The position numbers were made by a program, and so were the translations under genes. A stretch of 38,392 bases of DNA from Chiloscyllium plagiosum (Eukaryota): NCBI RefSeq assembly GCF_004010195.1, contig NC_057757.1, positions 1,138,405 to 1,176,796 on the forward strand. The letters are read 5' to 3'. This document shows positions 1,805-35,967 of this stretch, one piece after another; positions within the stretch are counted from its first letter, which is position 1; each line of letters begins with the position of its first letter. The notes below the pieces were generated by a model, which saw only the letters and a list, made by a program, of their open reading frames with translations, had not been told where the DNA came from and did not search any database.

Positions 1805-4570
1805 CAGAGTCATAGAACATGGAAACAAACCCTTCGATTCAACTCGTCCATGCCTAAACTGAACTAGTCCCATTTCCTTGCGGTTGATCTATATCCCTCT
1901 AAACCTTTCCTGTTCATGTACCCATCCAGGTGCCTTTGAAATGTTATAATTGTACCCACCTCCACCAATTCACCTAGTAGTTTGTTCCACATAGGCACCA
2001 CCCTCTGTGTGAAAAGTTGCCTCTTAGATCCCTTTTAAATCTTTCCCCTCTCACCTTAAATATATGCTCTGTTTCCCCTCTCCTGGGGAAAAGACCTTGG
2101 CTATTCACCCTATCTATGCCTCAAATGATCTTATAATCCTCTATAAGGTCACCCTTTAGCCTCCCAAATTCTAGGGGAGAAATTCCCAGCTTAGCCAGCC
2201 TCTCCTTATAGTTCAAACCCTCCAGTATTGGTAACATCCTTGTTAATATTTTCAGCACCTTTTTTCAGTTTAATAAGATTCTTCTTATAGCAGGGCAACC
2301 AGAACTGTATGCAGTACTCCAAAGGTGGTCTCACCAATGTATTGTACAACCGCAACATGATACTCGAACTCCTGTACCTAATGTTCTGACCAGTGAAAGC
2401 AAGTGTGCCAAATGCTTTCTTCACCAGCCTGTCTACCTGTGATGCCATTTCAAGGAACTATGTGTCTGAACCCCTAGGTCTCTCTGTTTGACAACACTAT
2501 CCAGGGCCCAACCATTAATTGTGCATCAATTTGTCTTATCAAAATGCAATACCTTACATTTATCTAAATTAAACTCTATCTGCCACTCCTTGGACTACTA
2601 CCCCAGCTGATCAAGACCTCAGTACTCTTTGATAACCTTCTTCATTGTCCATTATAGCACCATCACCTACAAACTTACTAACTATGCTTCCTGCATTCTC
2701 ATCCAAATTGTTTACATAAATGACAAACAACAGTGGACCCAGCATCGATCTCTGTGGCACACCGCTGGTCACAAGCCTTTAGTCTGAACACAACCCTCTA
2801 CCACCACTCTGTCTCCTATCATCAAACCAATTTTGTATCCAATTGGCTAGCTGTACCTGGACCTAACTTTACTAACAGTCTACCATGTGGAACCTTGTCA
2901 AAGGCCTTGCTAAAGTCCACGTAGATGTCTACCGCTCTGCCTTCATCTATCTTTTTGGTCACCTCTTTGAAACATTTATTCAAGTTTGAGAGACATGATT
3001 TCCCATGGACAAGGCCATGCTGACTTCCCTTAATCAATCCTTGCCTTTCCGAATGCAAGTAAATCCTGTCTCTCAGAAGCTTCTTCAACAACTTACCCAC
3101 CACTGACATCAGGCTCATCAGCGTATACTTCCTTGGCTTTTCCTTGCAGCTTTTCTTAAATAAAGGCACAATATTAGCCACGCTCCTGTCTTCCAGCACC
3201 TCACCCGTGGCCGTAGATGATACAAGTAACTTGGCTAGAGGTCCTGCAATTTCTTCCTTAGCTTCCCACAATGTCCTGGAATACCTCCGATCAGGTCCTG
3301 AGGATTTACCTACCTTTACGCATTTTAAGACCTCCAGCACCACCTCTTCTGTAATGTGGACTCTTTTCAAAACATCACTATTCATTTCCCCAAGTTCCCT
3401 AGCTTCTGTGTCTGTCCTCACAGTAAATACTGAGGCAAAATATTCATTTAGTATCTCACCATCCCGAGCCTTATTAATTAAGGGGCCCTATTCACTCCCT
3501 AGTTGCCCTTGTGTCATTAATGTACTTGTAGACTGTCTTTGAATTCTCCTTCACCTGATCTGCCAATGCTATCTCATGTCCTCTTTTGCCTTCCTGATTT
3601 CCCTCTTAAGTGTGTTCCTATTCCCCCTACACTCCAAGGGATTCACCAGATCCCAGTTGTCTATACCTGACGAATGCCTCCTTTTTGTTGAACAGAGCCT
3701 CAATATCTGTAATCATCCAGCATCATCCTGATGAAGGGCTTTTGCCTGAAACATCGATTCTTCTGCTCCTCAGATGCTGCCTGACCTGCTGTGCTTTTCC
3801 AACACCACAGTGTTGACTCTAACCTGGTGTTGTCTTAATACAATCCTGTTATTCTTACTGATATTGGAGATCTCCACACATATTTGCTTCCTCAATTTCT
3901 CACTGACTGACTATCAAGGTGATCATTCTCTTATTTCTCAGTTCCACGCATATAGCTTCCCTTAGGAATAATTCTCTTTTAAGTACTTCCGTGATGTTTT
4001 CCCTAGTCAAAAACACCACTCCTCCTCTTCTCTTGCTTCCCTTTCTATCCTATTAACATCTATAGCCCAGAACATTGAGCTGCCAGTCTTGTCTTTCCCT
4101 CAGCCACTTTTCTGTCATAGCTGTGATATTCTATTCCCATGTTCCCATTCATGCCCTGCATTCATCTGCCTTACCTGTCAGGCATCTTGCATTGAAATAA
4201 ATGCAGTTTAGTTCATCAGTCTTATCTCGCTCTCTACCGTGCTCCCGCCTGCCTTGTCTCTTTAACTTGCTCCCCTTAAACTCTGTACCAGCCTCAACCT
4301 TCTCTCTTCTCTCACTACTGCTTAGGGACCCACCCCCCAGCAGACTTATTTAAACCCTCCCAAACAGCATGAGCAAACCCTCCCACTGGGATATTGGTTC
4401 CCCCTATAGTTCAGGTGCAACCTGTCCTTGTACAGGTTGTCTCTTCCCCAGAAGGGATCTCAAGGATCCAAAAATCTGAATCCCTGCCCCTGCACCAGCT
4501 CCTCAGCCATGCATTCATCTGCCCTGTCCTCCTATTCCTACTTTCACTAACATGTGGCACTGGGAATAAT
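1805..4570 (-). mobile_element. CR1 LINE relic (ORF2 RT plus upstream fragments)
   Basis: ORFs 2822-3421 (SQHG..HGKSCLSNL, DFSKAFDKVPH) and 2206-2448 (LVRPPLEYCIQFW); frameshifted; interrupted by a PLE unit near 3727. Confidence 0.9.
3727..3820 (+). mobile_element. Penelope-derived unit with hammerhead-like core
   Basis: CTGATGA (3728-3734) - a gggc tttt gcct - GAAAC (3748-3752) - ATC. Confidence 0.7.
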
Positions 4571-4987
4571 CCAAATGAGTATTAACATTTCTCCTGAATT
4601 CCCTATTAGATTTATTGAATACTGTCTACATTTTGTGGATTCTAGTTTTGGACTCCCTAACAAATTTAGTATCTTCTCTGTGCCTACTCTATCTATCCTA
4701 TTCTAGCCTCCACTAGATCACCCTCCAGTAACTTCTGGAGGAAAGAACCAGAAGGAAGAAAGTTTAGAGAACACTGATAGGAAAGGTAAAATAAACAAAA
4801 GAAGGATACAGTGCTGAGAAATTTCGCAAGTTCCGCTGAATCATAAAAGCCTGTTAAACGCAATGGCGAGAAAGGAGTTTTGAGTGACGGGAGCAGAACC
4901 AGCATTTCGAGGCCTCACCCTTTGCAGTAGACAGTTGATACATCTTTGCGCATATTTCAAACTACGAGTAGAAGATATTTACAGTAC

Positions 4988-5100
4988 CTGTTCCAAGTTT
5001 TGAAGGCGTTGCTAGCTCGTTTATACAGATAACCCTCCATAACCACACCATTTGGAGCCTCTATATTAAACTCCACTGCCAAATCATCATAAAACACATC
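4988..5100 (-). CDS. ACAP1: ACAP exon 10 (start of PH domain)
   Basis: caacAG|GAT...AAC AG|GTACTG; 113 nt; DVFYDDLAVEFNIEAPNGVVMEGYLYKRASNAFKTWN(R), with the ACAP KRASNAFKTW motif. Confidence 0.95.
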
Positions 5101-5839
5101 CTGTTGAAAGTAAAAAATGTTTAATTAAACCAGCAACAGTTCAAATAAGCATCCTACTCTTTCAGACGGGAGGAGGAATTTCAATCCTCTGCGTCTTTGC
5201 CATTCAGTTTAATCAGAGCTGATATATATCTTAATTCTATTTGTTTTAGTTTCATCATCTATGATACCTTTTTTGATTTAAGTTTCGATATTGATAATTA
5301 ATTCCCAACTTCAACTGCTTTTTGGGGGAGAAGACTTCAGGTTTCCACAGCCCTTTAAATGAAAAAAAGGCTTCCTGATATCATCACTGAATGGCCAAAG
5401 TCAAATTTCAAGGTTATGTTTTCTTTTTCTGGGCTTCTCTCAAGAGAGGGAACAATTTCTCTCTTTTTCATTTGTGCAATTTCTTAAATTGTCTTAAAAC
5501 TCAATTAAATTATCCATTGAGTCTCCAAACTCAACAGGATTTTAACTTTGTCTTTGCAAACAGTCCTTTTATTAAAACACGTGAGTCTAGTGACTCAGCA
5601 CTGCACCTGCTTCAAGGTAGAGAGCAGAAGGCAAATACTCCAAACACACAGTCTAGTGAGAGCATTTTACAGCTGTAACAAAACTTGCACTCCTTGGAGT
5701 AATCGGTCCACAACTGTTTGCATTTCTATAATCTTCAGGGGGCAGAAGTTTAAGACATTAAAGTAGTGAGAGCTAATTGATGTTGGTTATGACTCATGCG
5801 TAGCCAGGATATAATAGTCCCGGAGATACAGGCTATTGT

Positions 5840-5945
5840 GATGCTGTGGTAGCGTCTCTACCTCTGAGCAGGAGGCACAGGTCTAAATCCCTCTAGCCCT
5901 GGATTTGTAGCATAACATGTTCAAACAGGTTGATTGAAATAACTT
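5840..5945 (+). mobile_element. Short degenerate tRNA-like SINE; related copies at ~22305-22400 (+) and ~22560-22652 (-)
   Basis: Shared gtggtag(t/c)gtc.ctacct.tg...g(t/g)ttcaagtcc...cataaca...gaacaggttgat pattern. Confidence 0.5.
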
Positions 5946-6147
5946 GAACAGGCAAGGAAGAAAAAGATGGGAAAGTAAAGTGGTAGGGCATTATCTGATT
6001 TATGGATGACACGTTTTAATTGACCTCCGGGCAGATTGGATTGAAGTGAAGTGGGGAAGGAACAGGGAGTTTGATTTCAAACAATCTTGCCTAATCCTGA
6101 TGTACAATTCATAAATTTCAAATAATAATGAAGTGTCATACCATTTA

Positions 6148-7107
6148 CAGTCACAGTCATATACAGCACAGAAACAGTCCCGTCCGTCCAACTTGTCCAT
6201 GCCAACCAATTATCCTAATCTAATATAGGCCCATTTGCCAGCACTTGGCCCATATCCCTTTAAATCCTTCCTGTTCATATACCAATCCAGATGCCTTTTA
6301 AATACTAAAATTGTACCAGCCTCCACCACTTCCTCAGGCAGCTCATTCCATACACACACCACTCTGCGTGAAAACGTTGCCCCTGAGATCCTTTTTATAG
6401 CTTTTCCCTCTCACTCTAAACCTATGCCCTCTAGTTCTGGACTCCCCCATCCATGGGAAAAGACTTTGTCTATTTATCCTATCCATGCCCATCATGATTT
6501 TATAAACCTCTATAAGGTCACCCCTCAGCCTCTGACGTTCCAGCCTATTCAGCTCTCCCTATAGCTCCAACCCTGGCAACATCCTTGTAAATCTTTTCTG
6601 AACCCTTTCAAGTTTCACAACATCCTTCCGATAGGAAGAAGACCAGAATTGCACGCAATATTCCAAAAGTGGCCTAACCAATATCCTGTATAGTCGCAGC
6701 ATAACCTCCAACTCCTATACTCAATACTCTGACCAATAAAGGAAAGCATACTAAATGCCTTCTTCACTATCCTATCTACCTGTGACTCTACTTTCAAGAA
6801 AGTATGAACCTGCACTCCGAGTTCTCATTGTTCAGCAACACTCCCCAGGACCTTACCACGAAGTGTATAAGTCCTGCTCTGATTTGCCTTTCCAAAATGC
6901 AGCACCTCGCATTTATCTGAATTAAACTCCATCTGCTACTCCTCAGCCCATTGGCCCATCTGGTCAGGATCTTGTAATCTGAGGTAACCTTCTTCACTGT
7001 CCACTACACCTCCAATTTTGGTGTCATCTGCAAACTTACTAACTGTATCTTCTATGTTCACATCCAATTGATTCACATAAATCACGAAAAGTAGTGGACC
7101 CAGCACC
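6148..7107 (-). mobile_element. CR1 LINE 3' portion
   Basis: VLGPLLFVIYVN...SKFADDTK (RT core); DRIVKKAF; 3' tail near 6148. Confidence 0.9.
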
Positions 7108-7224
7108 ATTTCTTGAGTTTTTAGGGAATTTATCACGAGAGTCTGCTGTAGAATCATACTTTTAAACTAGGGGTTTTGATATCTTAATCTTTTTTGTTTT
7201 TTCTCAACTAACTCCCTTTTCTGC

Positions 7225-7325
7225 AATGTCCCTGCCCTGAGAGAGTGTTGAGCACAGAGAGACCTTTACTCTGAATCCAAGCCACATCCTACCTATCCTG
7301 GGAGCTTTTGATAGGGACAGTGGGA
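7225..7325 (+). repeat. Dispersed degenerate satellite-like unit (also ~10605-10665 + and ~17160-17450 -)
   Basis: Shared motif ttactctg(t/a)atc(t/c)aa...ctgggag..tttgat.gggacagtg. Confidence 0.5.
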
Positions 7326-7444
7326 AAGAGAATACCAAACTTTGTGCTGAAATGTAAACAGAAAGTGCTGAAGAGACTCACCAAATTTGGCAGAATCTAT
7401 GGAGAGGGAAACAGAGTTAAAATGTTGAGTCTAACATGGACTTT

Positions 7445-10400
7445 AGACCATAAGACATAGAAATTTGGCCATTTGGCCCATCAAGTCTGCTCCACCATGG
7501 CTGATAAGTCTCCCATTCCCATTCTCCTGCTTTCTCCCTGTAACCTTTAATCCCCTTGATATCAAGAACCTATTTCAGTCTTACGTATACTCAGTGAATG
7601 GCGTCCACAGCCTTCTGTGGCAGTGAATTCCATTGATTCCCCACACTCTGGCTGAAGACGTTTCTCCTTAACTCTGTTCTAAAAGGACTTCCCTTTACGC
7701 TAAGGCTGTGTCGTCAGGTCCTCGTCTCTCCTACCAATGGAAACGTCTTCCCAACATCCACTCTGTCCAGGCCATTCAGTATTCTGCAAGTTTCAATTAT
7801 ATTCCACACACAACCCCCCCCATCCCCATCCTTTAAACTCTCACGAGTGTAGACCTAGAATCCTCAAACATTCCTCATATGTTAAGCCTTTTATTTCTGG
7901 AATCATGTCATGAACCTCCTGTGGACCCAAACCAGGGCCAGTACATCCTTCCTGAGATATGGGGCCCAAAATTACTCACAATACTCCAAATGTGGTCTGA
8001 CCAGAGCCTGAGAGAGCCTCAGAAGTACATCCTTGCTTTGAAATTCAAGTCCTCACAAAATAAATGTGTCTGTGCCTTTCTAATTACCAACTCAACCTGC
8101 AAGTTTACTTTGAGAGAATCCTGGACATCAACTCCCAAGTTCCTTTGCACTTCAGATTTCTGAATTTTCTCCCATTTAGAAAATATTCAATGCCTCTAAT
8201 CTTCTGATCAAAATGCATGACCGCATGTTGTATTCCATCTACCATTTCTTTGTCCACTCTCCTAACCTGTCTAAGTCCTTCTGCAACCTCCCCGCCTCCT
8301 CAATGCTACCTGTCCCTCTATCTTCCTTTGTATCATCTGCAGACTTAGAACATAGAACATAGAACAATACCGCGCAGAACAGGCCCTTTGGCCCTCGATG
8401 TTGTGCCACCCTGTGAACCATTCTAAGCTCATCCTCCTACACTATCCCATCATCATCCATGTGCTTATCTAAGGATTGTTTAAATCTCCCTAATGTGGCA
8501 ATTCGGGCATTCCACGCCCTCACCACTCTCTGAGTGAAGAACCTTCCTCTGATATCTGTCTTAAATCTATCGCCCTTCAATTTGTAGCTATGCCCCCTCG
8601 TACAAGCTGACGTCATCATCCTAGGAAAAAGACTTTCACTGTCTACCCTATCTAATCCTCTGATGATCTCGTATGTCTCTATCAAATCCCCTCTTAGCCT
8701 TCTTCTTTCCATTGAGAACAGACTCAAGTCTCTCAGCCTTTCCTCATAAGATCTTCCCTCCAGACCAGGCAACATCCTGGTAAATCTCCTCTGCATCTTT
8801 TCCAATGCTTCCACATCCTTCCTCTAATGGGACGACCAGAATATTCCAAGTGTGGCCGCACTAGCATTTTGTATAGTTGCAGCATGACATTGCGGTTCTG
8901 GAACTCAATCCCTCTACCAATGAAAACTAACACACCGTATGCCTTCTTAACAGCCCTATCAACCTGGGTAGCAACTTTCAGGGATCTGTGTACATGGACT
9001 CCAAGATCCTTCTGCACATCCACACTACCAAGAATCTTTCCATTGACCCAGTACTCTGCCTCCCTGTTATTCTTCCCAAATTAAATCACCTCACATTTAT
9101 CTGCATTGAACTCCATTTGCCACCTCTCAGTCCAATTCTGCAGTTTATCCAAGTCCCCCTGCAACCTGTAACATTCTTCCACGCTGTCCACTACTCTACT
9201 GACTTTAGTGTCATCTGCAAACTTACTAATCCATCCACCTATGCCTGTGTCTAAGTCATTTATAAAAATGACAAACAGCAGTGGTCCCACTTGTGGCACA
9301 CCACTTGTAACCGGACTCTATGCTGAATATTTTCCATCAACCACCACTCGCTGCCTTCTTTCAGAAAGCCAGTTTCTAATCCAAACTGCTAAATCACCCT
9401 CAATCCCATGCCTCTGCATTTTCTCCAACAGCCTACCATGTGGAACTTTATCAAAGACTTTACTGAAGTCCATGTATGCCACGTCAACTGCCCTACCCTC
9501 ATCTACATGCTTGGTCACCTTCTCAAAAAACTCAATGAGGTTTGTGAGACATGACCTGCCCTTGACGAAACCATGTTGACTATCTGAAATCAAATTGTTG
9601 TTTGCTAGATGATTATAAATCTTTGCTCTTATAATCCTTTCCAAAGCCTTTCCTACAACAGAAGTAAGGCTCAGTGGTTTATAATTACCTGGGTCACCTC
9701 TCCTGCCCTTCTTTAATAAGGGCACATTTGTAATCCTCCAGTCCTGTAGACAATGACAACTCAAATATCAAAGCCAAAGGCTTCACTATCTCCTCCCTAG
9801 CTTCCCAGAGAACCCTCGGATAAATCCCATCCGGCCCAGGGGACTTGTCTGCTTTCACTCCTTCTAGAATTGATAACACCTTTTCGTAACTAACCTTGAT
9901 CCTTTCTCGCCTAATATCTCGTATCTCATTCTTCTCCTCTTCAATATTCTCATTTTCCTGAGTGAAAACTGATGAGAAATGTTCATTTAGCACCTCTCTG
10001 ATCTCCACAGGGTCCACACTCAACTTCCCACTTCTGCCTTTGACTGGCCCATTCCTACCCTCGTCATCCTTTTATTCCTAACATACCTATAGAAAGCTTT
10101 AGGGTTCTCCTTTATTCTACCTGCTAAAACCCTAGCCAGAATGCTCTCAGTTCCTTCATTTGGTCATGAATGCAAAAAGTGAAAAGTTGTGGTCCCAACA
10201 CTGAGCCTCATGGAACACCATTAGTCACCTGCTGCCATCCTGAGAAGGACCCTTTTATCTCCACTCTCTGCCAGACAGCTAAACTTCTATCCATGCCAGC
10301 ACCATGCCTCTGACACCATGGGTCCTTATCTTGCTTAGCAGCCTCCTGTGCGGCACCTTGTCAAAGGCCTTCTGGAAGTCCAGGTCGATAACATCCATTG

Positions 10401-10570
10401 GCTCTCCTTGGTCTAATCTGCTCATTACCTTCTCAAAAGAATCCTAACAGATTTGTCGGGCATGACCTCCCCTTGATGAAATCATGCTGATTTTGGCCTA
10501 TTTTAACATACACTTCCAAGTTTTCAGAAATGACATCCTTCACAAAGGACTCCAAAATCTTACCAACTGC
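7445..10570 (-). mobile_element. Older CR1 LINE split by a nested CR1
   Basis: Tail at ~7445; ADDTK...LQKDLDRLGEWTKKW at 8239-8345; resumes at ~10130 (QHDFIKGRSC, DFQKAFDKVPH). Confidence 0.8.
8346..10130 (-). mobile_element. Younger CR1 LINE nested in an older CR1
   Basis: (tagaaca)n tail at 8346; ORFs 8437-10023 with PGPDGI, SQHGFVKGRSCLTNL, DFSKVFDKVPH, KFADDTK, LVRPHLEY. Confidence 0.92.
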
Positions 10571-10853
10571 CCTGGGTATATTTGATGAAATCATGCAGAA
10601 TAAGCCTTACTCTGTATCTAACCCTGTGATGTACCAGATCTGAATGTGATTGATAGGACAATGGGCAGAAATTATTGGTGTGGAGAGAAGGGTGTCTATA
10701 GTTAGTTAGTCAATGAATTAAAATCACCCTCATGCAATGTCACAAAGGTACAAAAAAACTCAAAACAGTATTGCTCATTTCAGTATGGGGCTCTGATGTA
10801 GCTCTGTGATTTATGGTATGAATACCCAACAGCTTGATATTCCTATGCCTCAC

Positions 10854-10928
10854 CTTCTGCTTGATAGTGGCATGCCTCTGTTCCATGTCTCGTTTATCTC
10901 TTGCTGAATTCAACACCAGCTGATGCAA
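10854..10928 (-). CDS. ACAP1: ACAP exon 9 (end of BAR)
   Basis: ttgcAG|...AAG|GTGAGG; 75 nt; LHQLVLNSARDKRDMEQRHATIKQK, nearly the ACAP1-type LHQLVLNSAREKRDMEQRH. Main basis for the paralogue call. Confidence 0.93.
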
Positions 10929-11459
10929 CTGCAAGAAGAGAGAAGCAAACATCATTGAAAACAACACGGAAAATTAGTCATTGTCTTTTTAAAAAGGAGG
11001 CCTTCCTTTTCACTTCCTACTGAAGATGCTGATGTTTTCTCTTGGTTCCCTCACACAGTATCTTCACCATGGACCCATCCTTCATATATGAGTGTTTACG
11101 TGATACTTGCCTGGAGAGGATACTGCAGTTAGGTGTGAACCTGCCCTCACCTGATCTAGTTCACACTGATGTGAGTTCCACATTCTCTCTCTGCTCTACA
11201 AAAAGGAACGTCTCTGAAGTTCTTAGTTTGATAGTTAAAGACTGTCTTATGTGAATGTGCAGTGTCGCTCAATAGCACTCAGCAGGAGGTACACGTGATT
11301 GATTATTCCTGTTGGATACACTGTGGGACCAACCACAACTGGCTAATGATTGGGGCAGAGTGTGGCCACCAATTCTTTGTACTCTTTTTAAAACAAATCT
11401 TGAATCAGATTGGACTATAACTTGGTTCAGTGTGATTTTTAACTTTGAATCAGGTTAGA

Positions 11460-11760: not shown

Positions 11761-11800
11761 AGCCTCCAATCTACATTTTTAAACAAGCTTAAAATCTAGT

Positions 11801-11940
11801 TCAGGCAGCACCTGAGGAGCAGGAGAATCGACATTTCGGGCAAACACCCTTTAAGCCTGATGAAAGGCTTTTGCCCGAAACGTCGATTTTCCTGCTCCTC
11901 AGATGCTGTCTGACTTGCTGTGCTTTTCCAACACCACAGT
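11801..11940. mobile_element. Inverted (head-to-head) Penelope-derived unit with a plus-strand hammerhead core
   Basis: 11801-11850 is largely the reverse complement of 11865-11913; CTGATGA 11857-11863, GAAAC 11877-11881, GTC 11882-11884. Confidence 0.8.
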
Positions 11941-11999
11941 GGCAACAGCCCCTAATAGGATACTGCATCAAAAATACAAACTGCCAATTAATAGTCACA

Positions 12000-13890: not shown

Positions 13891-14092
13891 TTGTAGTCCA
13901 TCTTGACACCTGCCTAATAATCTGTTGTTGAGGATAGACCACTGTCGAGTCTTAGGGAGAGGCATATGTTTTACATAACAGGGTGCAGTTTATTGCAATA
14001 TAACAATAGTTACAAATAACCTTATCTGGTGAGGCATAATTACTACAATCCATTATTTCGAATGTTGATGGTAGCCATGATAAGGAGGTGGC

Positions 14093-14290
14093 GGTGTTGA
14101 ACTGAGGTGGACAAAGTCAGAATTCACCCAACACCAAGCTATAGTCCAACAGGTTTATTTGAAATCACAAGCTTCAGGAGCGTTACTCTTTCAGGAACAG
14201 GGAAGCGCACAGGCACAGAATTTATATGCAGAGAGATAATGATGTCAAATAAACCTGTTGCATTTTGTTGTGTGACTTCTGACACTGCTT
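14093..14290. mobile_element. Penelope-derived terminal fragment with internal inversion
   Basis: caacacca.g.tatagtccaacaggtttattt as at 34700; inverted copy aaataaacctgttg at ~14247. Confidence 0.55.
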
Positions 14291-14637: not shown

Positions 14638-14960
14638 GTAAGTAAGTTAGCTGACTGAGCTGGAAGGTTTATTTTCAGACATTTCGTCACCATACTGGGT
14701 AACATCATCAGTGAAAGTGTCCGGTCAAAAACTGGTGTTATGTCCCGCCTCTCTATTGATCGGTCTTTTCTTAAGGTGAGTGACATAATTTTTTTTCAAG
14801 AAAAATTGGTAGGATCTAAGTCGATGTGTTAATTGATGGAATTCTGGTTAGATTGTCATGCGTCTAAGAATTCTTGCGCGTATCTTAGTTTTGCCCGTCC
14901 TAGGATGTGTGTGTTGTCCTGGTTAAAGTGGTGTCCCTCTTTGTCTGTATTTATGGAATT
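14638..14960 (-). mobile_element. Penelope (Poseidon-like) 3' fragment with hammerhead core
   Basis: Homologous to 27109-27566; minus strand CTGATGA (14711-14705) tgttacc cagtat ggtgac GAAAT GTC. Confidence 0.7.
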
Positions 14961-15225: not shown

Positions 15226-15690
15226 GGATGTATCACTACTTGGGATGGCAACTGTACCATTCGAGATCGGAGATGGTTACAGAGAGCAGTGAACTCGGCC
15301 CAGACAATCACAAAGGCCAACCTCCCATCTATAGAATCCATCTACAAGGCCCGCTGTCAAGGTAAGGCCACCAGCATTCTCAAAGATCCATCCCACCCTG
15401 GCAATGTTTTTCTACAACCTCTACCATCGTGGAGAAGGTACAGAAGCCTGAACACACACACCAGCCGGTTTCAAAACAGTTTCTACTCTATTGTTGTTAG
15501 AATACTGAATGAACTCACAAACTCTTAACATTCGCCTGTACCTGTGTTTTTTGTTTTTACTGCAGTTTATCTATTATTTACTTATCTATGTTACTTAACT
15601 CTGTGATCTGCCTGTATTGCTCACAAGACAAAGCTTTTCACTGTGTCTCAGTACACGTGACAATAAATTCAATTCAATTCAGTTCAATTC
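15226..15690 (+). mobile_element. Rex1/Babar-type non-LTR retrotransposon 3' end
   Basis: GCITTWDGNC..DRRWLQRAV...KDPSHPG..LPSWRRYRS...RFQNSF; AATAAA then (ATTCA)n tail. Confidence 0.8.
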
Positions 15691-15811
15691 ATATTATTGG
15701 CTATGTTAATACAGCACATTCTGGTATTATGTGTGTTTTGTCAACACGGACTGGGTATAACATGTTTGACAAATTGTGGTTGCTGTTTGGATAACACGAA
15801 CTTTCTACTGA

Positions 15812-17213: not shown

Positions 17214-17338
17214 GGAGAAAGTGAGGACTGCAGATTCTGGAGATCAGAGTCCAGAGTGTGGTACTGGAAAAGCCCATCAGATCAGGCAGCATCCGAGGAG
17301 CAGGAGGATTAACGTTTCAAGCATAACCCCTTCATCAG
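17214..17338 (-). mobile_element. 125-bp Penelope-derived unit starting exactly at a hammerhead core; 12-bp TSD
   Basis: TSD gtacagcaagag at 17202-17213 and 17339-17350; minus strand starts CTGATGA agggg ttat gctt GAAAC GTT. Confidence 0.8.
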
Positions 17339-20035: not shown

Positions 20036-20335
20036 GTTATTTTCTGATGTGGGGAAACCACTCAGTAGCTGATAGGCATCAGCTCTCCTCAATACTCAAC
20101 ATATTCCTGACTTGTCTGTTGGACAAGTCAGGAATGGAGTATTCTGATTAATGGATTAAAGTTAATTAAAAAATTATTAAAAGGAGACGATGTCAAAACT
20201 TTTCTTTTTGCTGTCATTACAAATAGGATGCAGAAAACACAAAGAATGGGACAACAATTTAATGTGGCATGAGAAGAGAATGCCATTGTTGGCGTAGGGA
20301 TACTGTAGAATCAATTAACAGTGTTTACATTTTTA

Positions 20336-20524
20336 AGTGTGGCACTGGCAAAGCACAGCCAGTCAGGCAGGATTCGAGGAGCAGGAGGGTCAACGTTTTG
20401 GGCATAAACCCTGCATCAGGAAGAGCTTGTGCTCGAAAGGCCAACTCTCCTGCTCCTCAGCTGCTGCCTGACCCCAGCACCACACTTTTCGACCCTGACT
20501 CTCCAGCATCTGCAGTCCTCACTT
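20336..20524. mobile_element. Inverted Penelope-derived unit with decayed hammerhead cores
   Basis: Left arm (minus copy) ends gcatcagg; right arm gctcgaaaggcc...tcctgctcctc...gcagtcctcactt. Confidence 0.7.
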
Positions 20525-21219: not shown

Positions 21220-21500
21220 TGATATACCTCATGCTACCTCACAGTGCTAGCGACCTGGGTTCGATTCCTGCCTTGGGCGTCTGTCTGTGTGGAGTTTGCA
21301 CGTTCTCCCAGTGTCTGCGAGGGTTTCCTCCCACAATCCAAAGGTATGCAGGTTTGGTGAATTGGTCATGTGAAATTGCCCATAGTATTAGGTGCATTAG
21401 TCAAGGGTAGATTTAGGGGGGGTGGGTTACTCTGCAGAGGATCGGTGTGGACTTGTTGGGCCAAATGGCCTGTTCCCACACTGTAGGGAATCAAATCTAA
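21220..21500 (+). mobile_element. HE1-type SINE
   Basis: gggttcgattcc B box; gtctgtgtggagtttgcac core; cacactgtaggga tail. Confidence 0.85.
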
Positions 21501-26056: not shown

Positions 26057-26384
26057 AAGAGTGTGGTGCTGGTAAAGCACAGCCGGTCAGGCAGCATCCA
26101 AGGAGCAGGAGAATCGATGTTTCTGGCATAAGCCCTTCATCAGGAGGGCTTTCTTGATGAAGGGCTTATGCCCGAAACGTCGCTTCTCCTGCTTCTCGAA
26201 TGCTGCCTGACCTCTGAACATAGAACATTACAGCGCAGTACAGGCCCTTCAGCCCTCAATGTTGCACTGCCCTGTGAAACCAATCTAAAGCCCATCTAAC
26301 CTACACTATTCCATTCTCTGCTGTGCTTTTCCAGCACCACACTCTTGAGTCTCATTTCCAGCATCTGCAATCCACACTTTCTCC
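26057..26384. mobile_element. Inverted Penelope-derived double-hammerhead unit with 16-bp TSD and a nested CR1 tail (~26216-26316)
   Basis: TSD tgatattcta(t/c)gggtc at 26041-26056 and 26385-26400; minus-strand CTGATGA 26143-26137; plus-strand TTGATGA 26154-26160...GAAAC GTC 26174-26181. Confidence 0.8.
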
Positions 26385-27108
26385 TGATATTCTACGGGTC
26401 CCACACAAGACTTTGCCAAACAGCACTGAATTTACATCTGCAGGCCTTTTCTCTTTGTAGCACTCTTCTTTAAGAAACACGCACATTCTTGGAATTAAAA
26501 GATTAAAATCATTCAATAACACTGCAGGGTTTTTCTCCATTGTTATAACGCTTCACCTGCAGGATGAATAAAATTAGTTTTACTGTCACTTCATTACAAG
26601 GAGTGAAAAATAATTAAATGAATAAAAGAATAAACACACGCATACACTCATTCCCTCAGCATCGATCAACATTATCTTTTCGGTTCTAACCTGCTCTCTT
26701 TAAGAACTGGACAAAGAGTCTTGTAATCACATTCAATTTCCCAGGAGTGGGTTATTTTTGTTTGATGTAGTTGAAGAAACAACATTCAACGACACAGTTG
26801 GAGTTCTCCACAAATGTTAATGGGCTATGGACAAGATTATAGTCTCTCTGTACCCACTTTGACTTAAAACCCAAACTGTCTTGACAGCCTGTATTAAACC
26901 AAGGATTTCCTCATCAACTGTGGAGTACGGTTTCTGATGCTCATTTAGTTTTTTTGGAGAAATATCTGCTGGATCTCTCTATTCTGGATTCATCATTTTG
27001 ATACCCCGGTTTCACTTGCATCGATGGCAATTTCAAATACTCGGATAAAGTTTGGAGACAGAAGCACAAGCACATTTATTAAAATGGCCTAAAGATTTTC
27101 AAAACCAG

Positions 27109-27566
27109 GATACGTGAACATCAACTAGCCACAAAACGACATGACCCACTCTCACTAGTATCCATACATATGGATGAGGAAGGACACCACTTCGACTGGG
27201 ACAATACATCCATCCTAGGACAAGCCAAACAGAGACACATGAGAATTCCTAGAAGCATGGCATTCTAACTGGAACTCCATCAACAAACACTTTGACTTGG
27301 ATCCCATTTACCATCCCCTGAGAAGAAGAACAGGAAATGATACCATCGTAGGAATTGATGTCACCACAGGAAATGACATCACCAACCCGAGGAAACTCAA
27401 ACATATAAATAGAAAGCGGGCTACACCACCAGTGCTTCATTCAGAGGCTCACTGAAGATATTACCTAGTATGGTGATAAAACGTCTGAAAATGAACTTTC
27501 CAGCTCAGTGAACAAACCTACATCCAGAACCTCAACCTGAGCTACAAATCTTCTCAAAACTCGCTC
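27109..27566 (+). mobile_element. Penelope (Poseidon-like) 3' end: GIY-YIG C-terminus plus pLTR with hammerhead-like core; 14-bp TSD
   Basis: RIREHQLATKRHDPLSLVSIH...HHFDWDNTSILG...EFLEAWHS..SINKH; TSD attttcaaaaccag at 27095-27108 and 27567-27580; CTGAAGA 27452-27458. Confidence 0.85.
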
Positions 27567-29189: not shown

Positions 29190-29491
29190 TGGTGGCACGG
29201 TGGCTCAGTGGTTAGCACTGCTGCCTCTCACCGCCAGGGACTCGCGTTCGATTCCAGCCTTGGGTGACTGTCTGTGTGGAGTTTGCATGTTCTCTGCGTG
29301 GGTTTCCTCTGGGTGCTCCAGTTTCTTCCCACAGTCCAACAACATGCAGTTTAGCTGAATTGGATATGCTGGATTGCATTAGTCAGGGATAAATATAGGT
29401 TAGGGGAATGGATTGAGGTGGGTTACTCTTCAGAGGGTTAGTGTGAACTTGTTGGGTTGAAAGACTTGTTCTCACACTGTAGGGATTCTAT
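29190..29491 (+). mobile_element. HE1-type SINE inserted in the integrase relic
   Basis: ggtggcacggtggctcagtgg A box, gttcgattcc B box, HE1 body and tail. Confidence 0.88.
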
Positions 29492-31465
29492 GGCAGTGAG
29501 GTACTGGTGGCCTCCTTGTTTTGGGCAAGGGTCCCACTTAGTCCACCAACACATTGTTGAATGTCTTCCTTTAATCTGACAGCAGGATCGTATGGGAAGC
29601 TCTTATTACAGGTTGGTATTTCCAAGCTCTGGAAAATGTTACAATATTATTATGGAGCTGTGGCCAATAAATTGCTGGCTGATTTGGGTTCACGGTTTAT
29701 GTATACCAACATACCCAGCCATTGGGATTTCATGAACATGCTGCAATATTTCCTGCTGTACCTGGACGGTACCATTAAGTGGTAGATCTCTGATCATTCC
29801 TGATTTGCAGAAATTTGAGGGGCTTTCCAGTTCCTCCCACCGATTCATTTCAATATAATACCACTCAGGGAGGCTTCTGCCTCAGCTTCAGCCTGCACAG
29901 TCAGAACTAAAATGTTTAAATTGTGGATCAACTTGTTGGTTTAATTCCTTGGGATCTTCTAGACTCAGGATAAAGGTTTCAGATATCCAAACTGGAGAGT
30001 GTTCTGTTCACAGCTGTATGTCAGCCTCCACTGGCTAACGTTGTTTGACCCCTAGACCACATGCCTGCATAGTCAGAGAAATGCGTGTCTGATGCAAGCT
30101 CCCTGACCCCCACGGTTTTCTCACTGACGAATAGGAATGCTATCCCTTTTTATCCCACCAGGTCATTGCCAAGGATCGGTCAATCGCATCCGAAGGCAAA
30201 CTGGGGATAACTCCAATGGTCACTGGCCTTGACATAAGCTCGCACTCCAGATGCACCTGCAAAGAGATTGGCATGTCTCCTTCTTCAATCCCTGTTCCTG
30301 GCATCTTTATACTTATTGCACTATCCGGTCAGAACTGCACTGAAGTTTGGCTAGACCCGATATTTCCCAATATCACACCAGGCAAGCTTACCTCACCCTA
30401 GAGAAACATGGCCATTCTCTCTTTGGATACAAAATCCTGATAACTCTCTGGAATTTGTCCTTCCTGTAATTCACACTCTCAGGAAGGCTGATACAGGGAT
30501 TCACAGCTGTAGTCAGAGCCATAACCAGGTTTGTTATGCTCCCTGACTGACTCCCATTCCTTCCACAGGGTGGGTAAGTCTTAATAAATTCCTCTTTTTT
30601 TATCCTGTAGTCTTCAGTAGCCGCCCTAGACATTGACTCTGTTAAAACATACATCTTTCTAGGTTGTCTATGAAGAGTAGATATTGTAATGTTGATAGTT
30701 AGAATAATCTATTTCTGGATTCTCAGCCTCTGTAGGTTATTTGAAGTCTGTTTTGACCTGTTTCCTTTGGCAGTGGTCACCTGGGAGCATTGAGAGAAAA
30801 GGAATCTTTTTTGTCCTGTTTCCTTTTGACCAACTTGCTAGCCAGTTGGCTTCAAGTAGTCAGTGAGTAAGATTATTTTTACCTGCAATGCAGGGGTGAT
30901 TAATTAAGTGGTTCTTCAGTGGTGACCATCATAGCGTATTAGTGCCTAAATAGGATAGAACACGTGCGCCCTCAGTTCACAAGAACGCCTCCCTTCACCG
31001 GCACATGCTCACTCCTTAATAAAGGCAGATCAAGGTTACAGTCAGTCAGTTTTTAATCCTGATTTTGTATGTCCCTAGAAGGGCAAAATACAAAATAAAG
31101 AATGGCAAAAGGTGCCTTTCTGCTAAGGTGGCAGAGATAGTCAAACCCCTGGTTAACACTTCTTGTTACATCTCTCTCTCTGTTTCGAGTTTCCCCGACA
31201 CTCCACAGGTGTGACATTCGGTGTGTCCTACACAATACTTTACCTGATAGCACTGAATTTACATTATTTTTATCGGTAGCTGTACTCTTTTAAAAACACA
31301 TTTTGGCATTAAAAATGTGAAAAATATTATAGAAATCCGGGTTTTAATCCATTGCTATCTCCTTCTTTTGCTTTGCATCTATTTTTGTATGAAGATCCTC
31401 AGGATGCGTTTTCGGGTTTAAAGTTTCTATATTAATGTAAATTGTGTACTGATTTTAAAACAAAG

Positions 31466-32188
31466 TGTGAAGGGAGTGTTGCTGAACAAAAGAGACCTTG
31501 GAGTGCAGGTTGATAGCTCCTTGAAAGTGGAGTCACAGGTAGATAGGATAGTGAAGAAGGCGTTTGGTATGCTTTCCTTTATCGGTCAGAGCATTGAGTA
31601 CAGGAGTTGGGAGGTCATGTTGCGCTGTACAGGACATTGGTTAGGCCACATTTGGAATATTCCATGCAATTTTGGCCTCCTTCCTATCTGAAGGATGTTG
31701 TGAAACTTGAAAGTGTTAAGAAAAGATTTACAAGGATGTTGCCAGGGTTGGAAGATTTGAGCTATAGGGAGAGGCTGAACAGGCTGGGGCTGTTTTCCCT
31801 GGAGCATCAGAGGCTGAGGGTTGACTTTATAGAGGTTTATAAAATCATAAGGGACATAGATAAGATAAATAGACAAGGTCTTTTCCCTGGGTTGAGGGAG
31901 TCCAGACTAGAGGGCCCAGGTTTAGGGTGAGAAGGGAAAGATATAAAAGAGACCTAAGGGGCAACTTTTTTATGCAGAGGTGGTATGTGTATGGGATGAG
32001 CTGCCAGAGGAAATGGTGGAGGCTGGTACAATTGCAACATTTAAAAGGCATCTATAAGAAGTGTTTGGAGGGATATGGGCCGGGTGCTGGCAGGTGGGAC
32101 TAGATTGGGTTGGGATATCTGGTCGGCATGGACGGGTTGGACCGAAGGGTTTGTTTCCGTGCTGTACATCCCTATGACTCTGTGACTC
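31466..32188 (+). mobile_element. CR1 LINE 3' portion
   Basis: LYRTLVRPHLEYSMQFW...RMLPGLEDLSYRERLNRLGLFSLE; (tgactc) tail. Confidence 0.92.
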
Positions 32189-32998
32189 TTAAGTTTATAA
32201 AGGATTCAGGTTACAGATTTAGAAGGTTAGGGAGTTTTTTTTCTTTTGCAATGATTAACAGTACAAAATATTATGCTCTTCAGAGAGTAATCTGGCATGG
32301 GCATGAATATAATTGGAGGAAATCTATTGCAGAATGTGTTAGGATCTGAATGGGCTAGTTCTGTGGGGTGCATTATACAATGGGATGATGTTATATAGAC
32401 TTGGATGGGGATCAGCTCTGGATCTCAAAAGAGACAGACCTACAATTGGGGCTCGTTGTGTGTAACAATGTCTATGATACCAAAGTGAAGATGATAGCAA
32501 TCCATCTACTATATCTTTCATACCCAGTTACTGAGCATCCATCATTCGATTTCATAATTGGATAAAATGGAATCGGTGGACTGAATGGCTTCTCACTCTG
32601 GATTTTCAAAATATTCCAATGATTTGCAAGACCACATCCTACATCTCACATTTTTTTGGGTGGGGGTTCACATTGGTGATTAGATCCCCACCTTTGCATT
32701 ATCCCAAAGTATATCCAATGCAGAAGGTTCACAGTTTGCTCTCACCCTATAAATATGGAACTCGCTTCTATTACACTTTATACCTTGGATCCCAGTGGCC
32801 CAATTAAGGGCACTGGCTATTGGAAATATGGACCCAACCAGTTGTGTAGGGATTCTGCAGACATGCAGATTGACATGCATGCAACACACTCGTGCCTGTA
32901 TGCAGGCATACACACTCTCACATCTTTTCAGAATGAGTGAAACCACCCAGTCCCTACTCAAAGGATTTTAAAATTGATGCACACAGAGATCTACTTAC

Positions 32999-33118
32999 GC
33001 TCATCATCTCATCGTTTTTGCAATGTCCAGACAGTTCTCGGATTCCGTTCACAAATTGCCTGGCATTAGTGCTGTATATTCGACCAGCTTCAAGCGTGGC
33101 ATTGCATATCTTCACCAG
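32999..33118 (-). CDS. ACAP1: ACAP exon 3 (BAR)
   Basis: ttgcAG|...|GTAAGT; 120 nt; LVKICNATLEAGRIYSTNARQFVNGIRELSGHCKNDEMMS; phase 0/0. Confidence 0.92.
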
Positions 33119-33429
33119 CTGCAACAAGAGGGCCACAAACTAACTACATCACATGGGAATGTTATATAGGAGCAGACCGGATCAATTTGTTTCCGTTTGG
33201 GAATGTCCAAACGATTGCTGGTGATAAGATAGCCTTTCACCAATTGCTTCAAGGGTCTGAATAGTAACAGGGAAGGGAGGCAGTGTGCATGTGGGCCTCC
33301 CTTCCCTAAGCCAGCGGAGGCATTTCTGGGCATGAGCATCAGTGATTCTTCTATTGGAAATTATTTCTTAAATCATCAGGTCTGTGCTAATAGCTGTAAT
33401 GAAAACCAGTTGAAGATCATTAATCAGCA

Positions 33430-34687
33430 GCACATTGTTCAAAATAGGTGGTCCTCTGGAATGTTGGGAAGTGGAATGTCTCCTCGTACGAGCAGATGTG
33501 ATGGAAACCGAGGAATTGGGAAAACAGATGGAGGTCTTGCAGGGTACTGTGTCGATGGAGGTCTGTTCCAGGTTGTTATGGGAGTCTGTGGGTTTAGAGT
33601 GGACATCCATCCGTATTAGCTTGCCAGAGACAGTAACGAAGAGATCATGAAAGGGGAGGGAAACGTGTGAGATTACTTTGAACAATGTGCATCCCCCTAC
33701 CCCTGAAATCTAGACAGCCCTCCACCGCATCTTCTCCATTCCCCGTTCCACTGCTCTAAACACCTCCTCCTCCAAACATAATAAAGACAGGGACCCTCTT
33801 GTCCTCACCTCCCACCCCACCAGGCTCTGCATGCAACGGATCATGCTTAAACATTTCCACCAATTCCAGCTAGATCCCATCACCAAGAACATCTTCCCCT
33901 TGCTGCCTTCTGCAAAGACTGCTCCCATTGACAGTCCTTGGTTCGCACCACTCTCCTTACCAACATCACCCCCCCACCCCCAAAACCCCAGGTACCTTCC
34001 CCTGCAACCAGAAAAGATGTAAAACCTGCTAGTAGACCATCACCCCCCTCACCTTATCCAGGGCCCCAGACAGTCCTTCCAGGTGAGACAGAGGTTCACC
34101 TGCCTCTCCTCCAACCTGATTTACTGCATCCGATGCTCCTAATGTGGTCTTCTCTATATTGCTGAGACCAAACATCAGTTAAGGGCATGTTTCACCTAGT
34201 ATCTCAGCCAAGCTCCTGTCACCAGCCATTTCAATTCCCCTTCCCACTCTCTCTCCAACATGACCATCCTTGGCTTCCTCCAGTGCCACAGCAAATCAGA
34301 CCGCAAATTGGAGGAACAACACCTCATCTTCCGCCTGGGCAGCCTACAGCCTGGAGTTCTCCAATTTCAAATAACCTCCTTTCCCATCACCCAACTCCCT
34401 TCCCAGCCCCTCCCCTCCCTTCAATTCCACTCACTCACCTTTCCTTCTAGCCACCAACCAGGTCGAACCCCCCCCTCCCTGTGTTCACCTATCATTACCT
34501 CACCACTCTGCCCCTCTCCCCACCCAAAACCCTCCCCCTCTCCCCCTCTTTATCGGCAGCTCCGTGCATCCCCACCACCCCCAGTCCTGAAGAAGGGTTA
34601 CACTTGAAACATTAACTTCTCCACTTCCTGATGCTGCCTGGCTTGCTGTGTTCTTCCAGCCTCCTGCTTGTCTGCTTTGGATTCCAG
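33430..34687 (+). mobile_element. Penelope (Neptune-like) element with inverted 5' RT segment, GIY-YIG relic and pLTR
   Basis: Minus 33430-33672: LPFHDL...DVHSKPTDSH; plus: FTCLSSNLIYCIRC..CGLLYIAETK, RKLEEQHLIFRLGSLQP; CTGAAGA..GAAAC at ~34587-34611. Confidence 0.82.
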
Positions 34688-34697
34688 GATTTGGAGG

Positions 34698-35360
34698 TGC
34701 TGGTGTTGGACTGGGATGCACAAAGTTAAAAATCACACAACACCGGGTTATAGTCCAACAGGTTTATTTGGAAGCACTAGCTTTGCTCCTTCATCAGGTG
34801 GTTGTGGAGTATAAGATCGTAAGACACAGAATTTATAGCAAGAGTTTACAGTGTGATGTAACTGAAATTGTACATTGAAAAAGACCTGGATTATTTGTTA
34901 AGTCTCTCATCTTTTAGAATGACCATGTTGGTTTCAGTTCTTTCATGTGTAAATTGCAAAACATTTTTAAAAGTTACATTCTCAAATAAACTTTAATGAT
35001 AAGTGTCATGTCAGCCCAGATAATGCATTGAAGGTGTGAAGTGCCCTGTGTAAGACTGTGCCACAATGGTCAGACTGATCTAATCTAAAAATGGGATTTA
35101 CAGAATTTTACAAGGATTCATGCAGTTTTTGAGCAAAGTAATATGTAATTCTGCAAGTACAACTTCACCCCACAAACACTGTATGTGTGCCTATGTGTGT
35201 GTGTGTGTGCAGTGAGGGTATGTGTGTCTGTGAAAGAGTGTGTGTATGTGTGAGTGTGAGTGTAAAAATCTGTGAGAAGGTGTGTGTGTGAGCATATGAG
35301 AGAGCGCTTGTAAGCTAGTGCCTCCAAATAAACCTGGTGTTGTGTGATTTTTAACTTTGG
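34698..35360 (-). mobile_element. Penelope-derived element with inverted terminal segments
   Basis: caaagttaaaaatcacacaacacc (~34720) versus ggtgttgtgtgatttttaactttg (~35336-35360); minus-strand CTGATGA at ~34791-34797 with stem II partly deleted. Confidence 0.6.
35180..35292. repeat. Imperfect (GT)n microsatellite
   Basis: Runs of tgtgtg/gagtgt. Confidence 0.85.
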
Positions 35361-35967
35361 ATTCCAGCGTCTGTGGGGGTTTTGTTTTGTCTCTAACCTG
35401 GTTTGAAGATTAAGACTGACGGGCAACTGTTTAGCTGCCTCTCCATGCTAAGGATGGTCTAACCAATCAGCATTCTCTTTTCATGTTGTATAAAATGGTG
35501 TGTCTCATTAAGTCTGCTTTTTGAATCCTGGTCCTGATGATTTCAAGATAAAAAGCTTTAATTTCTCATCACCGTTTTGCAATGATTAGCTAAATATATT
35601 GTAAAAATAAAACCTATGGGCTACGAAACCAGTTTTCATTCTGGAATTTGTCCAGTATTGGTATCAGTTGGGATCAAAATACTTCTGAAAAAGGGCTGTA
35701 GGGGTATATAATATTACCTACTATAAAACCACCATTGTCTTGGAATAGATCATCGTGAGTGGTACTGAAATGGGATTGGAACCAGGAATCCTCCTCATTG
35801 GTGTATTCCTTCCTACCAGGTAGAATGTTTATTAATTCATCAGTACTAAAAGACGGGTTCTGGTTCTCAGTTTGGATCAAAATGGAGGAAGGTTGGATTC
35901 ATACGCAAATGGAAAACCACTCCAATCTCACCTTCACCTCTCACTAATCATTGCTAATGGCACTCAC

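Follow-up and report, generated by a model that had tools for sequence, protein, structure and literature searches.

The window, the 38,392-nt stretch of the Chiloscyllium plagiosum genome analyzed here, contains part of a gene of the ACAP family (BAR-PH-ArfGAP-ANK) on its minus strand, with exons from position 36036 to 4987. Nine exons correspond to residues 15 to 286 of a 756-aa shark protein, and an earlier note, which had placed about nine hammerhead ribozyme cores in the introns of a single gene, is borne out in this respect. Pieces of the Penelope-like element (PLE) type occupy about 4.0 of the 38.4 kb. We conclude, with a probability of about 0.8, that the repeated motifs are genuine minimal type I hammerhead sequences at the 3' ends of truncated Penelope-like copies of at least four families, and that these copies are relics, probably inert in place.

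The window was searched with a descriptor consisting of CUGANGA, a hairpin of at least 3 bp, GAAA, 2 nt, and UH, with at most one core change allowed. Exactly eight matches were recovered (3728+, 11857+, 14711−, 17338−, 26143−, 26154+, 27452+, and 34587+), against 2.0 ± 1.3 (maximum, 6) in 200 dinucleotide shuffles; cores with no change at all numbered six in the window and 0.06 ± 0.24 (maximum, 1) in the same number of shuffles. The nine cores named earlier were located correctly, each by the low coordinate of its heptamer (14705 is C3 at 14711−; 34791 is 34797−), and eight of them fit the descriptor; the ninth, 34797(−), fails it, having lost the 3' arm of helix II, half of that helix, together with G12. 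Two decayed versions had also been proposed. That near 20410 is genuine, with C3 at 20419(−) and alterations at A9 and G12. That near 35534 is plausible but unproven: its heptamer and palindrome speak in its favor, whereas the loss of G12 and the existence of a single, weak relative in the window (20189 to 20286 on the minus strand; E = 3e-5) speak against it. A further decayed core at 14194(−), a coreless arm at 11798 to 11851(−), a partial arm from 20420(+), and the copy at 561 to 656 had been overlooked. Loose matches at 7368, 14985, 18191, 22330, 25675, and 32283 fail the descriptor and were rejected. An Rfam scan of the window (E ≤ 10) recovered no hammerhead family and only chance microRNA matches on fold-backs.

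The motifs have no helix III. Their 15.2-16.2 palindromes are ACGU in families A and B and AGCU in family C, with CpG-decayed forms in addition, and the core contains the bulged base after A9 that characterizes metazoan PLE minimal hammerheads (min-HHRs). Eight of the nine aligned sites are damaged by a change in the core, a disrupted pair at the base of helix II, a mismatch at 15.2-16.2, or the loss of helix I: C3>U at 26154; G12>A, and hence no GAAA, at 27452; G10.1>A with one contiguous bp of helix I at 11857; and a C×A mismatch at 15.2-16.2 at 3728, 26143, and 34587. Site 17338 lacks helix I because the insertion starts at C3. A complete core together with a helix II of 6 bp and a helix I of 5 bp is found at 14711(−) alone, where the 15.2-16.2 pair is U·G. 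Helix I measures 3 bp at 27452 and 3728 and is missing in truncated arms. The G10.1-C11.1 pair is present as G-C in three of the nine aligned copies and is G·U or decayed in the others. At position 3747, C was the majority letter in all four sequencing runs.

The suggestion of at least three or four PLE families holds: we distinguish four (A, A', B, and C), perhaps five. Compensatory differences distinguish the families, with 15.2-16.2 being C-G in A, A', and B versus G-C in C, and helix I being C-G/U-A in family A versus A-U/C-G in family B. Helix II of family A has 4 bp, and its helix I is weak even as a family (C-G, U-A, U·U, A-U, i.e., 2 bp, a U·U, and 1 bp in the loose-end consensus). Within the hammerhead, the family A variants listed across runs affect N7, loop II, CpG sites, and position 1.3 of helix I. 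Helix I positions 1 to 4 are paired in 121, 117, 112, and 93 of 127 same-core matches from other hosts (shuffle maxima, 115, 93, 72, and 73).

The attribution to Penelope-type min-HHRs is supported by tblastn searches with the shark proteins P0001/P0003 and P0011/P0017/P0021, which contain RT-thumb and GIY-YIG motifs. GIY-YIG remnants were recovered directly upstream of 14711, 27452, and 34587 (E = 4e-22, 3e-41, and 3e-44, respectively), i.e., at both family B copies and the A' copy, placing the hammerhead in the repeat behind the PLE open reading frame (ORF) in these two families. Homology was established by protein search and tblastn; Pfam returned nothing for the five short stop-free GIY-YIG pieces. 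The CxxC linker of the A' copy suggests that it is of the Neptune type. In family B, the AUG is made by A9-9.1-10.1, 28 nt before the cut. Target site duplications (TSDs) of 12 to 16 bp flank 6 of the 13 insertions tested, whereas, among 200 pairs of positions drawn at random, a single one scored ≥10; the search found none at 3728, 11857, 20336, 14711, 14075, or 35534 and only a weak one for A'. Five insertions are inverted, and in four of them a tail (about 40 nt) is present on exactly one end. The 3' ends of family A fall into two classes about 35 to 40 nt apart.

Table. Copies of Penelope-like elements and their parts in the window
Feature	Position	Strand	Remarks
Family A copy without core	561..656	+	Begins at base after predicted cut (position 1.1); includes tail
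TSD of 561..656	546-560/657-671		15 bp, 1 mismatch
Family A copy, core at 3728	3722..3820	+	No tail; inside CR1-like remnant; 11.1 and 16.2 decayed
Family C 3'-end fragment	11416..11444	+	29 bp; 16-bp TSD, 2 mismatches
Family A head-to-head insertion	11798..11941	both	Predicted single long hairpin
Minus arm of 11798..11941	11798-11851	−	Begins after most of CUGAUGA
Plus arm of 11798..11941	11856-11941	+	Core at 11857
Second family C insertion	14075..14283	−	Decayed core 14194; short inverted arm about 14232-14283
Family B copy	14641..14957	−	Poseidon-type GIY-YIG C-terminal remnant, then most intact hammerhead of window
Hammerhead of 14641..14957	C3 at 14711	−	Predicted cut after 14678
Family A copy, C3 to tail end	17214..17338	−	Perfect 12-bp TSD, 17202-17213/17339-17350
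Family A head-to-head insertion, decayed	20336..20524	both	Minus core 20419, no tail; plus arm from 20420, tail
Family A head-to-head insertion, single event	26057..26384	both	Minus core 26143, no tail; plus core 26154, tail
Repeat splitting plus arm of 26057..26384	26216-26314		About 100 bp
TSD of 26057..26384	26041-26056/26385-26400		16 bp, 1 mismatch
Family B insertion	27109..27566	+	458 bp; GIY-YIG C-terminal coding remnant, core at 27452, tail
TSD of 27109..27566	27095-27108/27567-27580		14 bp, perfect
Family A' copy	33471..34687	+	C-rich UTR, decayed core at 34587; tail resumes at 35368 past nested family C
Inverted 5' piece of A' copy	33471-33673	−	
Zn-finger linker and GIY-YIG remnant of A' copy	33762-34391		
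Family C insertion inside A' tail	34688..35354	−	Long minus arm: tail, deleted core 34797, about 500 bp upstream
Short inverted arm of 34688..35354	about 35305-35354	+	
TSD of 34688..35354	34675-34687/35355-35367		13 bp, perfect
Possible family D decayed core	35534..35560	+	CUGAUGA, no G12, AAGCUU palindrome

The window copies belong to an element type known since 2014, when min-HHRs were described in the pLTRs of metazoan PLEs (Cervera and De la Pena 2014, PMC4209133). In the accessible part of that account, the min-HHRs have the same core boxes, extra base 9.1, G10.1-C11.1 pair, palindromic 15.2-16.2, and lack of helix III; there are likewise several families per genome, and the motifs are mostly single, tied to truncated PLEs, and sometimes arranged in close opposite-strand pairs. 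Family A differs from the min-HHRs presented there in its 4-bp helix II and very weak helix I, and the same part of the account does not name sharks. The insertions fit the published anatomy of 5'-truncated PLE units, with their truncated arm, inverted partner, one-sided tail, and TSD: the available portion of a survey of EN+ PLE units describes 5' truncation, an adjacent inverted truncated copy, and a 30- to 40-bp tail on one end (bioRxiv 10.1101/2021.04.23.441226), and the one-end tail of inverted insertions is a described PLE trait according to that portion and PMC11167929. In the lizard element PAc (Poseidon, Anolis), stem II marks the start of the ORF, which lies 26 nt upstream of the cut (Frangieh et al. 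2024, PMC11167929). Family B resembles it in having the hammerhead after a GIY-YIG ORF, an AUG at the stem II base 26 to 28 nt before the cut, and two 3'-end classes about 40 nt apart (PMC11167929); unlike PAc, the window copies are broken 3' fragments. No shark-specific description of these families was found in the literature, and subscription journals, Repbase, and preprint supplements, which lay outside the search, may hold one.

The earlier note had viewed the units as a non-autonomous, retrozyme- or SINE-like population; as non-LTR retrozymes, they would spread through self-cleaved circular RNA and cleave as tandem dimers. The window does share type I hammerheads, palindromic ACGU/AGCU, and non-coding, pLTR-related units of matching size with such elements, whose dispersed monomers are common (PMC7229834; bioRxiv 10.64898/2026.07.22.740005), and pLTRs are given as the source of animal retrozymes in a 2026 preprint that counts the sole chondrichthyan sampled among their hosts (bioRxiv 10.64898/2026.07.22.740005). 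However, the defining trait of retrozymes is a head-to-tail repeat that contains two or more hammerheads (PMC7229834; bioRxiv 10.64898/2026.07.22.740005), and none of the nine TRF arrays in the window is a hammerhead unit. The paired cores sit on opposite strands in fold-back pairs, and among the joints listed 12 of 15 are inversions, with a whole-unit head-to-tail joint in two contigs of sequencing run X1. Furthermore, the core stands at the 5' end of the unit, although in a monomer running from cut to cut it would come last; the hammerheads are of the minimal and not the canonical kind; GIY-YIG remnants adjoin the B and A' copies; and the family C copy at 34688 has about 500 bp of upstream sequence. 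This view is thus largely ruled out for the window, and we regard it as very improbable. As for a SINE-like organization, no unit contains a match to the pol III A box, the sole within-unit B box match (14102) lies in a family C tail, and paired A and B boxes occur only in unrelated SINE copies near 280 and 29201. A discrete short template is possible for family A only.

The preferred reading, truncated Penelope-like copies, can be cast as the following mechanism. The Penelope protein would nick the target and prime reverse transcription internally, at either of two positions, which the two 3'-end classes place about 55 to 65 or 92 to 97 nt downstream of the hammerhead cut; in PAc, two internal start sites have been demonstrated in vitro (PMC11167929). 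Synthesis of cDNA would mostly end early, and the hammerhead, being just upstream of the start sites, would be copied as a passenger. Priming by both target strands would yield two short cDNAs joined head to head, and hence an inverted pair with a tail on one end and a 12- to 16-bp target duplication. Selection on the hammerhead probably acts in master elements only, with neutral decay, mainly at CpG, after insertion.

The copies in place are probably inert on this scheme, and two inverted pairs are predicted to form hairpins of −105 and −83 kcal/mol with the cores buried. The converse proposal, that one or more copies still cleave the ACAP pre-mRNA as ribozymes and influence the host gene, would apply best to 14711(−), which lies in the host sense orientation, has the full core and long helices noted above, and folds with a z of −2.7. 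Its 15.2 has nevertheless decayed to U, and no intact same-strand partner is present nearby; monomeric min-HHRs showed no in vitro cleavage, and PAc required its protein (PMC11167929). With cores about equal on both strands and no sign of selection for or against them, we consider such activity most improbable. Position 11884, put forward earlier for a cleavage test, is a poor choice, being antisense to the host gene, carrying G10.1>A, lacking helix I, and lying inside a fold-back hairpin.

Family A stands apart at its 5' edge. Eight of its nine arms (five of six events) start within a 14-nt stretch around C3 (−6 to +6), with a chance of about 0.002 to 0.006 per event set; thus, plain random 5' truncation does not explain the family. 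Over the 30 letters before this edge, agreement is 0.34 (1,524 contigs of run X1 and 1,468 of run X10 clipped at 3726). In X1, 62,027 contigs align to one copy; these figures are contig counts and not copy numbers. On the same proviso, family A copies may far exceed the 4,000 to 9,000 motifs of coelacanth and Xenopus given in the accessible part of PMC4209133. The family A pattern had no match in metagenome contigs; a looser core pattern recovered 123 metagenome-contig loci and 3 in genome contigs, used as an outside comparison only, none resembling the window over ≥40 nt. In contrast to family A, same-core families of other hosts show no 5' clustering at the hammerhead edge, their upstream homology being widely spread (5 of 71 at ≤10 nt), and the available portion of Craig et al. 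2021 does not mention such clustering for EN+ PLE units (bioRxiv 10.1101/2021.04.23.441226).

Two explanations of this edge were weighed. One takes family A to be a separate non-autonomous element about 130 nt long, with a short RNA starting at helix I, two Penelope priming sites, and mobilization in trans by a Neptune-type protein; such an element would live like a SINE but have no pol III head. The clustered starts, the low upstream agreement with high abundance, the absence of the edge in other hosts' families, and the lack of an adjoining coding remnant at all six insertions in the window (tblastn) fit this. Against it, the X1 and X10 loose-end consensuses have a common C-rich word about 12 to 15 nt upstream, and joints reveal two further words in that region, which indicates that part of the copies extend beyond the edge and that several subfamilies are mixed; this also lowers the upstream agreement. 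The related A' copy is joined to a coding remnant, no promoter was seen, and the short family C arm at 35305 also starts inside the hammerhead while its partner arm is 500 bp longer. In five family A copies, helix I is partly or wholly missing, and these could not themselves be masters. We judge a discrete element unlikely.

The other explanation, to which we give not quite even odds, is that autonomous elements gave rise to the short copies by run-off synthesis primed in the 5' repeat copy of a full-length transcript. PAc primes 111 to 118 nt into the ORF, and its main substrate is unprocessed RNA (PMC11167929); the D. virilis intron end maps to the helix I 5' end; A' has a pyrimidine tract with AG two bases before C3 (34575 to 34586); and the first base of the TSD-bounded copy at 561 is position 1.1, exactly at the predicted cut. 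A start at the cut is, however, seen in only this one of the nine arms, position 3756 is absent among the loose ends listed, and no run shows an end pile-up. The polyA single-cell run X21, unreliable for circles and cut ends, had 2,559 matching reads of 12.96 million in both orientations, again with no pile-up. Run-off would refine the preferred mechanism and not exclude it: the transcript 5' end (a start site or splice junction) would lie just before helix I, or the reverse transcriptase would stop there, and a minority of templates would already be self-cleaved.

As it stands, the locus exemplifies, at high density and in a shark, an element type already described and is mainly useful for repeat annotation, where Rfam misses these hammerhead pieces. 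More tentatively, and with the odds rather against it, family A may be a hammerhead-headed unit of about 130 nt in at least tens of thousands of copies and at least two shark species, with a template RNA that begins at helix I either as a non-autonomous parasite or by 5'-repeat run-off. If so, rare copies starting exactly at the cut, such as that at 561, would be DNA fossils of in vivo self-cleavage, of which we found no report for metazoan PLE hammerheads in the literature surveyed, and a genome-wide histogram of 5' ends would show directly at what stage of transposition the ribozyme cuts. Insertion of PAc proceeds in vitro without cleavage, and its cut site did not coincide with the end of any RNA-seq read (PMC11167929). 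Family A could bear on what the hammerhead does in Penelope transposition: were its 5' ends to peak at the cut site as well as at helix I, this role would become testable from genome sequence alone.

A strict core pattern combined with a hairpin recovered 7 sites in the window, against 0.74+-0.85 in 300 shuffles, and a minimal-hammerhead descriptor recovered 8, every one already listed in the earlier note; the core is unchanged at 6 of these 8 sites (0.06+-0.24 in 200 shuffles). An Rfam scan detected none of the hammerhead sites in the window. The feature that the note had claimed, approximately nine cores, is real and belongs to a known kind, though most of it is decayed (see the table). The host gene was identified with a Chiloscyllium punctatum ACAP-family protein, which matches one exon at 95%; its residues 15 to 286 (of 756) align to nine exons on the minus strand between 36036 and 4987, and Pfam assigns BAR_3 to two of these. 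Between these limits, every hammerhead motif falls in an intron. The copies at 561 and 3728 are beyond the last exon seen and, judging from the protein length, presumably in an intron running out of the window.

Hammerhead cores, target site duplications (TSDs), and Penelope-like element (PLE) families in the window
Feature	Position	Strand	Description
Core	3728		Helix II base G.U; 15.2-16.2 CxA
Core	11857		Helix II base AxC; helix I only 1 bp
Core	14711	-	Only essentially complete core in the window
Core	17338		Helix I absent
Core	20419		A9 and G12 altered
Core	26143		GxA and CxA mismatches
Core	26154		C3>U
Core	27452		G12>A
Core	34587		Two G.U; CxA; helix I first pair broken
Core	34797		Helix II 3' arm and G12 deleted
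TSD	546-560/657-671		
TSD	11400-11415/11445-11460		
TSD	17202-17213/17339-17350		
TSD	26041-26056/26385-26400		
TSD	27095-27108/27567-27580		
TSD	34675-34687/35355-35367		
Family A			6 insertions, 9 arms
Family A'	34587		About 75% like A
Family B	14711, 27452		
Family C	34797, 14194, 11416		29-bp piece at 11416
Family D	35534		Possible

Families were defined by self-BLAST and nhmmer within the window. Among the positions listed, variation within family A falls in loop II, N7, position 1.3, and CpG decay. Between families, A, A', and B share a C-G pair at 15.2-16.2, where C has G-C; the fourth helix II pair, C-G in A, is U-A in A'; and family A has the helix I pairs C-G/U-A where B has A-U/C-G/U-A. 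Of a helix II of 5 bp, each C copy retains a single arm (GGAGC at 34797, GCTCC at 14194). Among 127 same-core matches from metagenome contigs, counts that relatedness inflates, helix I positions 1 to 4 are paired in 121, 117, 112, and 93, where the shuffle means are 110, 83, 56, and 59. Thus, the covariation by which the earlier note had proposed to check its cores is found between families, with the helix I/II and 15.2-16.2 pairs changing together. Two contigs in a bacterial metagenome-assembled genome (L124 and L126) bear PLE-type hammerheads resembling animal-type metagenome families and are likely host DNA binned with the bacterium.

The attribution to PLEs was also right. A stop-free piece upstream of 27452 matches, at 80 to 85%, shark proteins that contain RT-thumb and GIY-YIG motifs and align by TBLASTN to 27098-27440 and 14957-14712, and a piece upstream of 34587 matches GIY-YIG proteins carrying a CxxC linker, which align to 33762-34391 and to an inverted piece at 33673-33471. 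From the absence and presence of this linker in the sequence, respectively, we call family B putatively Poseidon type and A' putatively Neptune type. The family B open reading frame ends in an 18-bp tandem expansion (27330-27384; 3.1 copies), which the 14711 copy lacks. A pyrimidine tract plus AG (34575-34586), two bases 5' of the A' core C3, resembles a 3' splice site where helix I begins, like the one reported for D. virilis Penelope.

Six insertions are bounded by TSDs of 12 to 16 bp; the search found none at six others and a weak one for A'. The 26143/26154 pair is one insertion event. Family A 3' ends lie about 55 to 65 or 92 to 97 nt downstream of the predicted cut, with one arm shorter, and 3' ends in same-core families of other hosts are bimodal too; in 4 of 5 inverted insertions, the tail (an extra ~40 nt) is on a single end only. 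PLE pieces nest in one another: the A' tail is interrupted by a family C insertion (34675-35367), and the 3728 copy is directly followed by a 13-bp word resembling C (3821-3833). A ~100-bp repeat, which we take to be a CR1/LINE 3' end, interrupts the plus arm of a family A fold-back (26216-26314; other copies at 1419-1514 and 8355-8450) and is therefore younger than that copy. Same-core hammerheads of other hosts (L031, L037, L088, and L097) also form head-to-head opposite-strand pairs, like the fold-backs of the window. The insertions match the published PLE anatomy, namely, 5' truncation, an adjoining inverted copy, and a 30- to 40-bp single-end tail (bioRxiv 10.1101/2021.04.23.441226). Another study attributes the tail to two internal priming sites and describes extension of both target strands by PAc, the Poseidon element of Anolis (PMC11167929). 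According to Cervera and De la Pena, genomes hold thousands of minimal hammerheads, mostly single ones that probably derive from truncated PLEs, with some in close opposite-strand pairs; monomers are inactive and dimers of low activity (PMC4209133).

The same note had read these copies as a retrozyme- or SINE-like population. Non-LTR retrozymes are defined by head-to-tail repeats (PMC7229834; bioRxiv 10.64898/2026.07.22.740005). TRF found no head-to-tail hammerhead array over the window. Among 62,027 aligned contigs of sequencing run X1, inversions make up 12 of the 15 joints listed for the 3728 copy (some joints being uncounted), and a whole-unit head-to-tail joint occurs in 2. A dimer on a single strand is impossible for inverted core pairs, for which folding predictions give long hairpins (-105.1 and -82.7 kcal/mol). 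The retrozyme reading is, given the missing array, the mostly inverted joints, and the inverted pairs, largely wrong; the SINE-like one is not supported, with no polymerase III box pair within the hammerhead units. SINE copies with a tRNA head and A/B boxes, presumably HE1-like, do occur at 181-290, 21232-21490, 29191-29490, and 37503-37830, unrelated to these units. The window also holds a ~170-bp direct duplication (47-290/343-512, starting near 1 and 345), whose copies flank a SINE-like piece, and a coding remnant of another non-LTR element (15230-15670; C-terminal RT-associated domain, plus strand) ending in an AATTC repeat.

Placed against a consensus of the sequence upstream of the core, the family A arms have their 5' ends at about -6, -3, -3, -2, -1, 0, +5, and +6 relative to C3, with one at +29; when each insertion is counted once, 5 of 6 start within 14 nt (chance, 0.002 to 0.006). 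Contigs clipped at 3726 number 1,524 in X1 and 1,468 in a second run, X10, a count that is uninformative because the window copy itself ends there. The 30 letters 5' of 3726 agree at only 0.34 across contigs of both runs, so most family A copies share no sequence upstream; from a C-rich word in common, it is evident that a minority of copies, or a mix of subfamilies, does extend farther 5'. In families of other hosts, upstream homology is ≤10 nt at only 5 of 71 loci and >100 nt at 33 (some loci may be duplicated between samples), so the 5' edge characterizes family A rather than PLEs in general. Any one of these would explain it: a transcript that starts or is spliced at helix I, strong stopping of the RT, or a short, non-autonomous master element. 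Contigs on the 3728 copy have no end peak at position 1.1 among those listed. The TSD-bounded family A copy at 561-656 has position 1.1, directly after the predicted cut, as its first base. A self-cleaved template would produce such a start, and the copy, a single case among the nine arms, is possibly a fossil of one.
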